From: Candidatus Parcubacteria bacterium
Lineage (GTDB): Bacteria > Patescibacteriota > Minisyncoccia > Phycocordibacterales > UBA5272
DNA length: 64,000 nucleotides
Direction of reading: 5' to 3'
NCBI GenBank assembly: GCA_039796775.1
Contig: JBDKJD010000002.1
Span: 76,574-140,573, forward strand
The notes under the pieces are model-generated. The model saw only the letters and a program-made list of their open reading frames with translations. It did not search any database and had not been told where the DNA came from. Below are positions 59,268-64,000 of the stretch, in pieces; position 1 is the first letter of the stretch; each line of letters starts with the position of its first letter. The position numbers were made by a program, and so were the translations under genes.

Positions 59268-59864
59268 AGCTATCACTGACTAATGAAGAAAAACGTTAAC
59301 AAAAACCACTAAGAAATTCGGGGCCGGGTAACGTTCGTTACTAAGCCGCCGAAAGGCGGATTTTGTTTTTTTAATAAGTCAGTTTCTGTAGTTACTTTGA
59401 CAATAGAATCCCATGCATCTCACGCACACAACAATACTGTTATCCAGTAGTAGTAATATTCACTGGGGTCTTGCGGAGTAGATGACATGGACACATGAAA
59501 AGACAACACATCACACAGCGACGGAGCGGTCCTTAGCTGTGTGGTAATTATGTTTCCTAATAGGAACATTAAGAGCATACGGTGGATGCCTTGGATCTAA
59601 CAAGCGACGAAAGACGTGGTCAGGCGACGATACGTTTCGGGGAGGTGCCTAACAACCTTCGATCCGGAAATTTCTGAATGGGGAAACCCTACACGAGTAA
59701 TGTCGTGTAACCATAGAGAGCATTCTCATGGAGCAAACTCAGGGAAGTGAAACATCTCAGTACCTGAAGGAAAAGAAACTAAAATAAGTATTCCGCAAGT
59801 AGCGGCGAGCGAAAACGGAGAAGCCCAAACCTACGCATCACACAGTGTGTGATGCAGTATTGGT

Positions 59865-59945
59865 AATTAGTAATTGGTAATTGGTCAAATGCATTTTGTA
59901 TTTAACTAATAACTAATAACTAATAACTAATAACTGCATCGCGCT
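59865..59945 (+). repeat. AT-rich expansion in a 23S domain I variable helix containing (TAACTAA)n and (TTGGTAA)n microsatellites
   Basis: Seen in sequence between the conserved blocks GCCCAAACC and GGGGGTAGTAAG. Confidence 0.6.
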
Positions 59946-60895
59946 TTGCGTGATGCGTGGGGGTAGTAAGACAGAAACGTAGATTTCTAGAAGAGTTACA
60001 AAAGATATGTATAGATAAAGTTGTTGGAAAGCAACGCCAAAGAAAGTGATAGCCTTGTTATCGAAATGCATATCTCTCTTTTGTTTCTGATCTTGAGTAA
60101 TTCGAGACATGAATAGCTCGGGTGAATCAGCCAGAACTAACTGGTAAGGCTAAATATTGTTAGATACCGATAGTGAACTAGTACCGTGAGGGAAAGGTGA
60201 AAAGAACCCCGGGAGGGGAGTGAAATAGAACTGAAACCGTATGTTTACAAAGAGTAGAAGAGGACTTGTTCCTCGACTGCGTGCCTATTGAAGAATGAGC
60301 CAACGAGTTGTAGGTTACTGCAGGCTAAGTGGTATAAAGTCACGGAGCCATAGCGAAAGCAAGTGTGATAAGCGCGAACAAATATTGTAGTAACTTACAG
60401 ACCCGAAGCCGGATGAGCTTACCATGAGCAGGGTGAAGTATCTCGAAAGAGATATGGAGGCCCGAACCAGTAGGTTGTACGACTCCTTTGGATGACTTGT
60501 GGTAAGGAGTGAAAAGCTAATCGAATTCGGTAATAGCTGGTTCTCTCCGAAATAGTTTTTGGACTAGCGTCGTGTGTTCCCTTTGGGGGTAAAGCACTGG
60601 AAGGTTTTGACTAGTAGAAATACGGCAACACCTATCAAACTCTGAATACCAAAGGTTAAAAACGCGGCAGTAAGACCACGGGGGCGAAGCTCCGTAGGTC
60701 AAAAGGGAAACAGCCCAGATCGCAAGTTAAGGTCCCTAAGTATAGATTAAGTGTAAGCGAGGAGGTGGAGTTTCATTGACAATGAGGATGTTGGCTTAGA
60801 AGCAGCCATCATTGAAAGAAAGCGTAACAGCTCACCCATCGAGAGACTCTGCGCCGTAAATGATCGGGACTAAAATCTATCACCGAAACTGCGGG

Positions 60896-61131
60896 CTTGT
60901 GAATTTCATAGAGGACTTTATGTTCTCAACAGTGGAAAGGGGAAAGGTGTCAGGCGCGAAAGGCCTAGACTTTGGAGGTCAACACACGCTCGGAACGTTG
61001 CACTAGGACGCTATGGCATGCCTTGCGTTAGCCGGCAAGACCCCCACCTTTGGATAACGTTGCGCGTCAGCGCATCCTTCCCCCGACCTTACTCGAATTA
61101 CAATATTCGAGTCCTCTATGAAATTCACAAG
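60896..61131 (+). other. ~235-nt hairpin insertion (intervening-sequence-like) at the 23S helix-45 position
   Basis: 21-nt perfectly complementary flanks cttgtgaatttcatagaggac / gtcctctatgaaattcacaag enclosing 194 nt. Confidence 0.55.
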
Positions 61132-61721
61132 CGGTAGGAGAGTGTTCCACTCTGCGCTGAAGCGGAAGGGGTAACCCACCGTGGAGCGTGTGGAAGTACG
61201 AATGTTGGCACAAGTAACCGCAAGGCAGGTGAGATCCCTGCCCGCCGAAAGAATAAGGTTTCCTTTCCAATGATTGTCAGGGAAGGGTTAGTCGGGCCTA
61301 AGCTGATGGCAAACGCCGGAAGCGATGGACATAAGGTTAATATTCCTTAACTCGGTAGTAATGTGATGGGATGACGCAGGGTTGTATGTAAAGCGTATTA
61401 TTGGATTTACGTTTATGGCATGAGGAGCTTGTACAGGGAAATCCGTACGAGAATACTCCAAGTGTTGTATGAAGATGAGAGGCAACTCGATTCAACTTTA
61501 CAAAGCATGCTGCCAAGAAAAGTCTCTACATTCTGTGAATACAGAACGTCTACATATGCTTTGCTTGCAAGGTATATGTGGATGCTTAAGTTACTATTGA
61601 TCCGTACCGCAAACCGACACAGGTATTCAAGTCGAGTAGACTAAGGCGAACGAGTGATTTCTCCCTAAGGAACTAGGCAAAAAAGCGATCGTAAGTTAGC
61701 GATAAGATCTGCCTCCACCAC

Positions 61722-62001
61722 TTTGTTTTCAAAACAAGCTTACAAAATTACTTCATCTACTTCGTTGAAGCAAATTTTTTCTTCCGCAATGTACGTCTAG
61801 TACATTTTGGTCGCAAAATTTGCTCCGCCTCGTAGCTAAAGCAATTTTCTAACCTTGTAATACTGAAAGCATTTAGTGTTGGTTCTAGGAAATTAGATGA
61901 ATTGAGACAAACGTAACTATCATAGAGCTATGATAGTTACACAAATGTGAGTAAGTGTGATGGAAATAATTTCCTACGATCAAAACTACTTTGAAAATAA
62001 A
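61722..62001 (+). other. ~280-nt expansion/intervening sequence in a domain IV variable helix (helix 63 region)
   Basis: Flanked by complementary gcctccaccac / gtggtggaggc; absent from the E. coli-type sequence. Confidence 0.5.
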
Positions 62002-62190
62002 GTGGTGGAGGCCGCAGCGAAAGTTTCCCTAGCGACTGTTTACCAAAAACACAGCTTCCTGCGAACACGTAAGTGGATGTATAGGAGGTGACGCCTGACC
62101 AATGCGGGAAGGTCAAATATCGGCGGTTCTTCGGAGCTGGATGATATAAGCCCCCGTCAATGTCGGCCGTAACTATAACGGTCCTAAGGT

Positions 62191-62389
62191 ACTGGCCATA
62201 GCTAATATGGTCAGTAGGACTAGGACGGTTATAGCTAGTGTTTTGTAAACATTCTAATCATACGCCTACTAAAAGCTACCTGCTTCATAGAAATATGAAT
62301 GCAGTCCGAAGTGGTTAGCGAGAGACCAACGCCACACATCTGACCATTAAGTTGAAGATGAAGATAGAGTCCTTCTTGAGGAATAGAAG
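62191..62389 (+). mobile_element. 199-nt group-I-intron-like insertion at 23S position L1931 (in GGTCCTAAGGT|AGCGAAATTCC), no ORF
   Basis: Interrupts a universally conserved H69-adjacent sequence; 5' exon ends in U and the insert ends in G, as in group I introns. Confidence 0.5.
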
Positions 62390-63054
62390 AGCGAAATTCC
62401 TTGTCTGGTAAGTTCAGACGTGCACGAATGGCGTAACGACTGGGGAACTGTCTCAGGGAGTAGCTCGGTGAAAATACAGTGGGGGTGAAGATGCCCCCTT
62501 CCTGCAGATAGACGAAAAGACCCCGTGAGCTTTACTCCAGCTTGGTATTGCAAATGTTCAATTACTGCGTAGTGTAGTGGTGAGAGGTTTGATGTTCATG
62601 ATTTCGGTTGTGATCTACTCGTCAATGAAACAGCCATCTTTAATTGGGCATTTGCTAACGTGTACGGACAAAACGTACGCAGACAGTATCTGGCGGGGAG
62701 TTTAACTGGGGCGGTTTCCTCCCAAAAGGTAACGGAGGAGTACATTAAGATCATCTAGGCGCGAATGGAAACCGTGCCGATAGCGCAAGGGCATATGATG
62801 GTTTGACTGTAAGACGGGCATGTCGAGCAGACGCGAAAGCGGGTCCTAGTGAACCTACTCTTGGCTTTAGACACCGGAGCAGATTAACGGATAGAAGCTA
62901 CCACGGGGATAACAGGCTAGTTGTGCCCAAGAGTTCATATCGACGGCACAGTTCGGCACCTCGATGTCGGCTCATCTTATCCTGGTGGTGAAGAAGCTAC
63001 CAAGGGTTTGGCTGTTCGCCAATTAAAAAGATACGTGAGCTGGGTTCAAACCGT

Positions 63055-63570
63055 AGGGGGTTCAAGCTTTTAGCAATTAGCTTTTAGCTTTTAGCAAATA
63101 CAATTTTGTGTTTTCTAAAGGCTAACGGCTAAAAGCCAATAGCTTGAGTCTCCTTAGTTTGAACCCGAGGTGATGAGACTCAACTCATCAAAAAAGACAT
63201 TGATCACGGCGGTTATATACAGTGATGTATATGAACAAGCTGACTAATATCGGTGAAATCCTTTTCTAAACAATGTGATAAGAAAGGACAACACCGAGGG
63301 AAGCAAAATAGATGATAGGCAGTAGATTATGGACAATAGAAATGCATTCTGTATTTTCTTATGTCTATTGTCTCATGTCTTTTCTTTAGTAATTTTGTAC
63401 CCGTAGAGACTACACGTCAGCGAGCTAGTTCTGGTTATGGTATTTAGTATTAGTATTTTAACTAGTAACTATTAACTATTAACTAACAACTAGTTCAAGC
63501 TATAGTCCGATCCCTCTAGTAATAGAGGTTCATGAGTATTGAAACCACATCATGATGTAAAACAGAAATG
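63055..63570 (+). mobile_element. 516-nt group-I-intron-like insertion at 23S position L2593 (GGGTTCAAACCGT|CGTGAGACAG), no homing-endonuclease ORF; contains mini-repeats
   Basis: Interrupts the conserved PTC sequence; U at the 5' exon end and G at the intron end; restores an E. coli-like junction when removed. Confidence 0.55.
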
Positions 63571-64000
63571 CGTGAGACAGGTTGGTTTCCTATCTTCTGC
63601 AGGCGTTCGAATATTGAGAAGATTTGCTCCTAGTACGAGAGGACCGGAGTGAACTAACCTCTGGTGTATGGGCTCTAGCGCCAGCTGGACCGCCCAGTAG
63701 CTATGTTGGGAATGGATAAGTTCTGAAAGCATCTAAGAACGAAGCCAACTTCAAGATAAGTATTCGTTTGAGGGTCGTAAGAGATGATTACGTTGATAGG
63801 AGCTAGATGTACGCACAGCAATGTGTTTAGTCAAGGCTTACTAATTACCCGAAGTCCTATTAGGAAACATGATTATCACTGATAATTGTGTCTCTACAAG
63901 TCTATGTAGAGAAAAATGTGTTGCTTTCATGTGGTGCGGAAAATAGATAAGTAGACAACAGACATATAGACAGCAGGTAATGCAAATGCATTTTCTGATG

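Follow-up and report, generated by a model that had tools for sequence, protein, structure and literature searches.

Five insertions interrupt the 23S rRNA gene that lies in a 64,000-nt stretch of contig JBDKJD010000002.1 (assembly GCA_039796775.1; this whole stretch is called the window) from a Candidatus Parcubacteria bacterium. One of them, a 199-nt element located immediately after U1931 and termed the L1931 element, is, judging from its relatives, a descendant of bona fide group I introns that lacks P4-P6, a domain usually regarded as indispensable. The element belongs to what we recognize as a conserved and widespread family of P4-P6-less group I derivatives, and this family is the part of the analysis that goes beyond the literature that could be searched. 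The overall pattern, an insertion-laden 23S rRNA gene in a member of the CPR (candidate phyla radiation), is already known and published (PMC11270868). We regard it as fairly probable that the locus as a whole is a single unlinked 23S rRNA gene of a CPR bacterium of the Parcubacteria/Paceibacteria type, in which a complete group I intron after U2593 (L2593), the reduced group I descendant after U1931 and stem-closed insertions at helix 45, helix 63 and domain I are combined. The positions, boundaries, homology, structure and covariation of the insertions are shown by the analysis, whereas their splicing or excision, and its mechanism, are inferred. An earlier note on this DNA had placed five insertions in the gene, and their coordinates and junctions are borne out by the Rfam alignment and by the alignment with E. 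coli. Insertions are numbered according to a MAFFT alignment with E. coli rrl (RefSeq), in which helix 69 (H69), the A2451 region and the sarcin-ricin loop serve as landmarks. Loci fetched from relatives are designated by L and three digits; L032 and L103 are the closest to the window, with ~90-97% identity in the flanking rRNA. The coordinates of all features are summarized in Table 1.

The site of the L1931 element after U1931 and its junctions, which had been proposed in the earlier note, are confirmed by the E. coli alignment and the landmark motifs. The 5' exon ends in U, the element ends in G at position 62389, and the ligated exons are expected to read GGUCCUAAGGU joined to AGCGAAAUUCC. 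When the isolated 241-nt region of the element is searched with Rfam, no family, including Intron_gpI (RF00028), is matched at E≤10. A complete 185-nt group I intron located at the same site in a metagenome contig (L126) scores 52.3 bits, indicating that small size is not the reason why the 199-nt element is missed by Rfam. To collect relatives, GTDB species genomes were scanned with a pattern consisting of the S element and the 3' exon, which gave 119 loci, and metagenome contigs were scanned with a pattern in which only the flanking exons and the insert length (185-215 nt) were fixed, which gave 120 loci with 99 unique inserts. In this length-only, sequence-unbiased metagenome scan, 93 of the 99 inserts end in G. 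About 77 of them belong to the same class as the window element, designated class a, and 76 of these 77 have the terminal G. When the genome and metagenome sequences are pooled, 100 unique compact class a sequences of 187-226 nt are obtained, the window element and 99 others, a minimum for the size of the family.

Class a also contains longer members. Nine of them (247-338 nt) have a canonical P4 (AUGCUGG-GAAA), P5, the AAUCAGCAGGGAAG element, P6 and CAGAGACUAAAC, and the long relative L109 scores 65.9 bits with Intron_gpI. Members of 690-770 nt carry open reading frames (ORFs) of the endonuclease type; LAGLIDADG_1 is identified in both of the members that were submitted to Pfam, L097 (81 bits) and L007 (97 bits), and in L097 and L014 the ORF occupies P6 and extends into the R element. 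The window element aligns with the Rfam-positive and LAGLIDADG-encoding members in its 5' domain, guide sequence, R and S, which indicates its descent from bona fide group I introns. The gap of the compact members relative to the long ones falls exactly between J3/4 and J6/7 in this alignment. In the simplest history, a single deletion between J3/4 and J6/7 of a LAGLIDADG-carrying intron would have removed the ORF together with P4-P5-P6, so that the compact members would have lost the endonuclease gene and the scaffold at once. The element had been described as group-I-like and near the minimum size of a group I intron. Its group I descent stands, but it is not a minimal complete intron, with P4-P5-P6 absent, a U-A pair at the splice site and no match to Rfam. 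Complete group I introns of 185-204 nt with P4-P6 are found at L1931 in eight metagenome contigs, and to our knowledge the 185-nt intron of L126 (1960-2146) is as small as the smallest well-known group I introns, or smaller.

The structure proposed for the L1931 element was examined with 83 diverse compact members with short exon flanks. Standard pairs are formed in 95.1% of the alignment cells, compared with 82.0 ± 0.3% for shuffled alignments, and none of 500 shuffles reaches 95.1%. Thirty-one pairs change on both sides, and the covariation score is 0.397 versus 0.148. When the partners are slid by 1-3 columns, pairing falls to 34-43%. RNAalifold, which was run without the proposed structure being given, recovers Pa, the 5' exon pairing, P10, P2, P3, P8 and P9.0. 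P1 is 99.7% paired and P10 and P3 are 100% paired; all four pairs of P3, four of the five pairs of P8 and all three pairs of P9.0 covary, and one P3 pair is AU in 39 members and GC in 39. The X1-Y1 helix covaries as well (GGAUU/AAUCC, UGACU/AGUCA and UAACU/AGUUA). P2 is capped by GAAA in the window element and by GUAA in most members. P7 (G[A]GAC/GUCC) retains the canonical G-C pair beside the bulged A that forms the guanosine pocket, and it covaries between subgroups (GACUAU/AUAGUC versus GGCCAU/AUGGUC). After the P3 5' strand (62311-62314 in the window element), the compact members have just 7 nt, then the P7 strand and the P3 3' strand; P4-P5-P6 is missing. Thus, of the P1-P9 folding proposed in the earlier note, P1, P2, P3, P7, P8 and P9.0 are found but P4-P5-P6 are not; the guide, P10, J8/7 and the terminal G are also kept, and a P3-P7-P8 core, the absence of which would have argued against group I introns, is detectable in both the L1931 and L2593 inserts. 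Despite the relatedness of the members, the range of pair types exceeds by far what a few inherited changes would give.

Several other interpretations of these sequences were considered and rejected. GGACU at 62217-62221 is not the 5' strand of P7 pairing with the S element, because it covaries instead with AGUCC at 62303-62307. A kissing interaction between the P2 loop (GUAAU) and an upstream AUUAC is possible in 44 of the 83 members, compared with a permutation mean of 37.8 and a maximum of 43, which is too weak, and a GNRA tetraloop fits better. The geometry at both junctions, as inspected, does not fit archaeal-type bulge-helix-bulge splice sites. Weak Rfam matches in the inserts (miRNA, snoRNA, hammerhead HH9, sok and others) are far below their gathering scores and are accounted for by long hairpins; they are attributed to chance.

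The insertion after U2593 is, on balance of the features examined, a canonical and ordinary ORF-less group I intron, as the earlier note had proposed. Intron_gpI matches 63204-63529 over its full length (model 1-253) with 48.2 bits and an E-value of 3e-11. This score is 1.8 bits below the gathering score of 50, a point against the assignment; it is lowered by repeat hairpins of 67 nt and ~50 nt, located by tandem-repeat search, which inflate the loops of P6 and P8. All of P2-P9 can be identified together with R and S, P4-P6 and the P3/P7 pseudoknot included, so that, with P1 and P10, the whole P1-P10 set is present. In the guide, CACG pairs with the 3' exon CGUG to form P10, the following G forms a wobble pair with U2593, and CGG pairs with the exon CCG to form P1; the exact octamer is kept in 40 of the 56 unique related introns that were found. 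The 5' exon ends in U and the intron in G (63570); all 56 of the related introns likewise end in G. Removal of the insert restores the uninterrupted exon, and the ligated junction is expected to read AACCGU joined to CGUGAGACAG. In L032 and L103, position 63054 of the window is joined directly to 63571, which provides independent proof of the boundaries, and 85 intron-less alleles with exactly this junction are present among the fetched loci (L032, L103, L021 and 82 others). Neither the L2593 nor the L1931 insert contains an ORF of at least 40 amino acids, in agreement with the claim that neither encodes a homing endonuclease. The L2593 intron is expected to self-splice by the two usual transesterifications, in which the guide would align both exons; the G.U wobble would lie at the 5' splice site, and the P7 pocket would hold the terminal G. 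The chloroplast intron Cr.LSU (I-CreI) of Chlamydomonas reinhardtii is inserted at the same site and belongs to the same class; unlike Cr.LSU, the window intron has no endonuclease ORF, and it has a large 5' hairpin, an exon-complementary segment upstream of the guide and heptamer hairpins in its peripheral loops. L032 and L103 carry an insertion of ~370-378 nt at the position corresponding to 62961/62962 of the window (E. coli ~2500), which is absent from the window, and lack the L2593 intron, indicating that intron content turns over between rRNA genes with 90-97% identity.

The L1931 and L2593 introns share a layout: a hairpin comes directly after the 5' splice site, next to it stands a segment that matches the part of the 5' exon upstream of P1, and the guide lies only 50-150 nt further on. 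A description of this layout was not found in the literature searched. In the L1931 element, 62222-62234 (intron positions 32-44; AGGACGGUUAUAG) is complementary to the H69 5' exon CUAUAACGGUCCU (62173-62185). This pairing is compatible in 94% of the cells; the exon is invariant, and the changes in the intron are mostly from A to G, by which a U-A pair becomes U.G and the pair is kept. A second segment, AGGAAU (62379-62384, intron positions 189-194), is complementary to the 3' exon AUUCCU (62396-62401) and is paired in 99.4% of the cells. In the L2593 intron, 63157-63166 (GUUUGAACCC) is complementary to the 5' exon GGGUUCAAAC (63042-63051). Exon position 2588, which is A or G, covaries with its intron partner in the 56 unique introns, as G:C in 36, A:U in 18 and G:U in 2, without a mismatch. 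GAAACCA (63541-63547) is complementary to exon 63583-63589 in the sequence of the window. The exon pairings cross the X1-Y1 helix and P1, indicating that they form pseudoknots or represent alternative states. These segments may act as clamps that hold the exons, or may block rRNA helices from competing with the 4-bp P1.

Several points weigh against the reading that the L1931 element is still spliced as a group I intron. P4-P6 is absent, and with it the wobble receptor of J4/5 and the triples of J3/4 and J6/7. U1931 pairs with A, rather than forming a G.U wobble, in all 83 compact members. In Tetrahymena, mutagenesis shows that loss of P4-P6 and loss of the wobble each strongly impair the first splicing step in model introns. 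Judging by the title of a paper by Everett and co-workers from 1999 that is cited in PMC11270868, Simkania is said to tolerate an unspliced intron at 1931. The case for splicing of the 199-nt element is drawn from conservation. The genome pattern could find only inserts with the S element and a terminal G, and the metagenome pattern only inserts of 185-215 nt with exact exon 11-mers; the counts from each scan are to be read within these constraints. P7 of the subgroup of the window element, with 4 bp and a bulge, is invariant and does not covary, and covariation counts are inflated by shared ancestry. The U-A pair is not readily explained by loss of the wobble receptor. The guide reads GCU-G-CCU in six long relatives without an ORF, L109 among them, and already reads GCUACCU in L097, which has P4-P6 and the endonuclease gene. 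This result indicates that the A predates the deletion and is not caused by it, and an origin of the U-A pair from the loss of J4/5 is weakened accordingly. Ikawa, Shiraishi and Inoue reportedly found in 2000 that an engineered Tetrahymena P3-P9 core without P4-P6, the "minimal catalytic domain", keeps weak activity, so that a natural intron without P4-P6 is mechanistically conceivable. This core is said to be a laboratory deletion that is barely active and needs special ionic conditions, whereas the L1931 elements are a natural and diversified family with additional exon-binding segments.

In spite of these points, the L1931 element is very probably removed from the rRNA. Its removal by group I chemistry, whether autonomous or assisted by a host factor, is reasonably likely; splicing would then be helped by the two clamps, one on H69 of the 5' exon and the other on 1938-1943 of the 3' exon, and possibly by a protein. 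Fully autonomous self-splicing is doubtful. It is thus a tentative proposal that the compact L1931 elements represent a natural, widespread, self-splicing class without P4-P6 and the G.U pair, in which exon-clamping helices hold the substrates. It is very unlikely that the element stays in the mature 23S rRNA and forms an expansion where H69 and H71 meet. A crippled catalytic core and the reported Simkania precedent at the same site would suit retention, but a retained element would not need a guide complementary to both exons, for which P1 and P10 are 99.7-100% paired, nor a covarying P9.0 that positions the last G, nor a terminal G in 76 of the 77 members of the unbiased class a set, and the site lies in a universally conserved inter-subunit region.

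An arrangement in which the element is removed without being an autonomous ribozyme, because a host protein or RNA replaces the P4-P6 scaffold as in the degenerate introns of lichen fungi, which are incapable of self-splicing, is possible at a rather low probability. The absence of P4-P6 and the U-A pair at the splice site agree with it, and in fungal rDNA the splicing of degenerate group I introns in vivo depends on dedicated host machinery (PMC8527467; PMC3160393). These fungal introns have lost parts of the core, occupy rRNA group I sites and are removed in vivo like the proposed fate of the L1931 element; they are eukaryotic, often 56-81 nt or ~300 nt long, and reportedly need host machinery, whereas P3-P7-P8, J8/7 and the terminal G are intact in the CPR element. 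A second intron is present in the same gene for 47 of 49 compact elements, which could point to a factor acting in trans, but this co-occurrence is unspecific, because it is also seen for 15 of 17 long relatives that contain P4-P6, and in L021 and L204 the compact element occurs without another insertion between 1932 and the sarcin-ricin loop. Trans-complementation of P4-P6 by another intron of the same rRNA is rejected for these reasons. Everything specific to group I chemistry is still conserved, from the guanosine pocket and J8/7 to P9.0 and the terminal G, which is likewise unfavourable to a host factor, for which no candidate was found. Removal of the L1931 element by group I chemistry, in either form, is the reading that we prefer.

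The remaining three insertions are hairpins that are variable among relatives and fold far more stably than shuffled controls. The helix-45 insertion is confirmed, with a 23-bp perfect inverted repeat as its closing stem. It folds with a z-score of -5.9 and has a branched interior of ~190 nt. Its interior (60918-61109) is markedly G+C-rich compared with the ~40% G+C of the genome. Neither Rfam nor the fetched loci provide a match to the interior, and no ORF is present in the 238-nt insert. The helix-45 tip is 22-28 nt long in the closest relatives and 10-29 nt long in 107 of 140 related genes, whereas ~20 relatives have inserts of 100-500 nt with the same closing stem GCUUGUGAAUUUCAUAGAGGA and unrelated interiors. 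In a Saccharibacteria metagenome-assembled genome (MAG), L053:4778-5187 is a 410-nt helix-45 insert in which one stretch (GGGGGGATGGCGGAATTGGTAGACGCAACG) resembles the 5' portion of a tRNA; if this were a tRNA gene, its location within a 23S intervening sequence would be unusual. The helix-63 insertion is located where the earlier note had placed it, but its terminal repeat is 23 nt long and 96% complementary rather than an 11-bp stem. It has a closing stem of ~23-28 bp and an A+T-rich multibranch interior (-102.7 kcal/mol, z-score -10.3), and it is partly common to L028, L215 and L032 and shorter in L103. The domain-I insertion, thought to be an AT microsatellite expansion, is correctly located but of a different nature. 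It is a single near-perfect hairpin of ~60 bp with heptamer repeats in one arm and their complements in the other (-71.5 kcal/mol, z-score -14.8), and TRF detects period-7 arrays at 59859-59885 and 59903-59935.

The three insertions would be stem-closed additions at surface-exposed variable helices, and those at helix 63 and in domain I could be either excised or retained as expansion segments. The helix-45 insertion is most likely an intervening sequence (IVS) excised by RNase III. That the helix-63 and domain-I insertions, and possibly the helix-45 insertion, are retained as expansion segments instead of being excised is quite conceivable, although we lean somewhat against it. They are found at the tips of helices that are variable and surface-exposed. 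In eukaryotes, H63 carries the expansion segment ES27. The domain-I hairpin is one of many heptamer-repeat hairpins that also occur in intergenic regions, and the partial conservation of the helix-63 insert in L028, L215 and L032 would fit retention as well. On the other hand, a perfect closing duplex of more than 20 bp is a good substrate for RNase III, the conserved stem with unrelated interiors at helix 45 looks like a processing signal, and helix 45 is the classical IVS site, such CPR insertions having been assigned to IVSs (PMC11270868). The helix-45 IVSs of Salmonella, Leptospira, Coxiella and others (references in PMC11270868) are located in the same helix, have a long closing stem and are sporadic among close relatives; compared with them, the 238-nt insert of the window has a G+C-rich structured interior without an ORF, and the inserts of its family have the stem in common but differ in their interiors.

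The 23S rRNA gene matches the Rfam bacterial large-subunit model, a check proposed in the earlier note, over its full length, exceeds the model length by ~1380 nt (~1.4 kb extra), and has the conserved functional centres. The sequences ATGTTTCCTAATAGG and CCTATTAGGAAACAT, which flank the mature ends, are perfect complements and may form a processing stem, as is general in rRNA maturation. Neither a small-subunit rRNA (Rfam) nor a tRNA (ARAGORN) is detected in the whole 64-kb window. Because no 16S rRNA or tRNA-Ile/Ala gene precedes the 23S rRNA gene and no tRNA gene lies in the 64 kb, the 23S rRNA gene is unlinked, and so are the rRNA genes of this genome. The ~53 nt at 61496-61548, which the earlier note does not list, are 84-92% identical in many relatives, which indicates a lineage-typical rRNA feature rather than a recent insertion. 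A pseudogene or a chimeric assembly, with biologically meaningless inserts, is a highly improbable explanation of the gene. The sequence comes from a MAG contig, and a search for near-identical strains with a neighbouring gene gives only one 3.5-kb contig, which has no rRNA; against a pseudogene or chimera, however, stand the full-length Rfam match with conserved functional centres and the fact that more than 100 independent assemblies have the same element types at the same sites, where compensatory substitutions are seen.

Outside the rRNA gene, the window consists of ordinary bacterial coding sequence, with genes for EF-G, SecY, FtsK and ComEC-like proteins among others. The EF-G and FtsK sequences are the same as MEN9551886.1 and MEN9551928.1 from a MAG of a Candidatus Parcubacteria bacterium, which places the organism in the CPR (Patescibacteria). 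Large proteins with PG_binding_1 domains and a 903-amino-acid protein with weak matches to TrwB/TraG-type coupling proteins are encoded at 18051-19652, 32255-33565, 51131-54301 and 41344-44055, and may belong to an apparatus of the cell surface or for DNA transfer. Tandem repeats of heptamers or 14-mers, often forming hairpins with the repeat in one arm and its complement in the other, are scattered in the intergenic regions; one of them consists of 11.7 copies of TCTAATG at 10199-10280. Repeats of the same kind are inserted in the domain-I variable hairpin and in the peripheral loops of the L2593 intron, where relatives such as L043 have other units.

Table 1. Features of the window, with positions counted from its first nucleotide
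Feature	Position	Strand	Description
Putative processing stem, 5' arm	59550-59564	+	Pairs with 63856-63870; flanks mature 23S ends
23S rRNA gene	59558-63864	+	4307 nt; Rfam LSU_rRNA_bacteria, 2172.7 bits, model 1-2925
Domain-I hairpin	59830-59961	+	~116 nt added; 116 nt versus 6 in the model (Rfam alignment)
Helix-45 insertion (IVS-type)	60895-61132	+	238 nt, after E. coli ~1163-1185; stem 60895-60917/61110-61132
Extra stretch	61496-61548	+	~53 nt more than E. coli, after ~1545 (MAFFT)
Helix-63 region insertion	61711-62012	+	Terminal repeat 61711-61733/61990-62012
L1931 element	62191-62389	+	199 nt, compact class a, without P4-P6; after U1931
L1931 Pa (5' hairpin)	62191-62215	+	Intron 1-10/16-25; starts at 5' splice site; 9 of 9 pairs covary (n=83)
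L1931 X1 and exon-complementary segment	62217-62234	+	X1 (GGACU) pairs with Y1 (AGUCC), 62303-62307
L1931 guide	62275-62281	+	GCU-A-CCU; GCU with 3' exon AGC forms P10, ACCU with 5' exon AGGU forms P1
L1931 P2	62282-62302	+	Hairpin with conserved bulge and GNRA-type loop; 7 of 7 pairs covary
L1931 P3 and P7 5' strand	62311-62335	+	P3 GUGG/CCAC; 7-nt linker; P7 strand G[A]GAC at 62322-62326
L1931 P8 to 3' end	62337-62389	+	P8; J8/7 AAGAUAGA; P7 3' strand GUCC; P9.0 UUC/GAA; AGGAAU; terminal G
L2593 intron	63055-63570	+	516 nt, ORF-less canonical group I intron; after U2593; Intron_gpI match
L2593 5' hairpin and exon-complementary segment	63056-63166	+	Inverted repeats; heptamer repeats at 63066-63144
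L2593 guide	63205-63212	+	CACG-G-CGG (CACGGCGG); read from the sequence
L2593 core	63239-63528	+	Rfam alignment and mapped coordinates
L2593 P3	63239-44/63416-21	+	
L2593 P4	63250-55/63292-97	+	
L2593 P5	63259-66/63282-88	+	
L2593 P6	63298-309/63392-402	+	
L2593 R	63403-15	+	
L2593 P8	63422-30/63488-96	+	
L2593 S	63497-508	+	
L2593 P9	63513-28	+	
Intergenic repeats	3366-3571, 10199-10280, 15423-15442, 17598-17638, 33570-33600, 44740-44797, 45511-45542, 55289-55324		Heptamer/14-mer tandem repeats
Repeats of the same kind inside the rRNA gene	59859-59935, 63065-63133, 63307-63380, 63459-63494		

Insertions in CPR 23S rRNA genes have been surveyed by Tsurumaki et al. 2024, who found them in 82% of 348 genes, with up to 16 per gene and hot spots at 1917, 1931, 1952, 2593, 2604 and 2657 (PMC11270868). 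The same survey reports 222 ORF-less group I introns, short non-intron insertions at classical IVS sites, and a residue of "uncharacterized" insertions, mostly shorter than 200 bp, that fit no intron model and contain no ORF, and it cites Brown et al. 2015 for the removal of CPR insertions from transcripts (PMC11270868). The window resembles these published cases (Brown et al. 2015; PMC11270868) in the group of organisms, the sites (1931, 2593 and the helix-45 IVS), the ORF-less introns and the presence of several insertions per gene. The survey classified insertions by the Rfam model, so that the 199-nt insert of the window would fall in its uncharacterized category; no description of P4-P6 loss or of exon-complementary segments was found in it. 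The L1931 introns of Simkania negevensis and Thermotoga spp. (references in PMC11270868) are located at the identical site after U1931, but differ from the window element, which has neither P4-P6 nor the G.U pair and in which a 5' domain of ~85 nt separates the splice site from the guide.

Many of the "uncharacterized short insertions" at 1931 are neither junk nor complete mini-introns, but coherent, covarying group I derivatives without P4-P6, and Rfam-based censuses would undercount the introns in CPR rRNA. The clamp is backed by the covariation of exon and intron at 2593 and may represent a general adaptation of rRNA introns of this kind. If the L1931 elements splice, they provide a natural test of how small the catalytic unit of a group I intron can be, and of whether the scaffold domain can be replaced by exon-tethering helices or by a host factor. 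If they prove to be self-splicing, they would represent a new minimal architecture of the group I fold.

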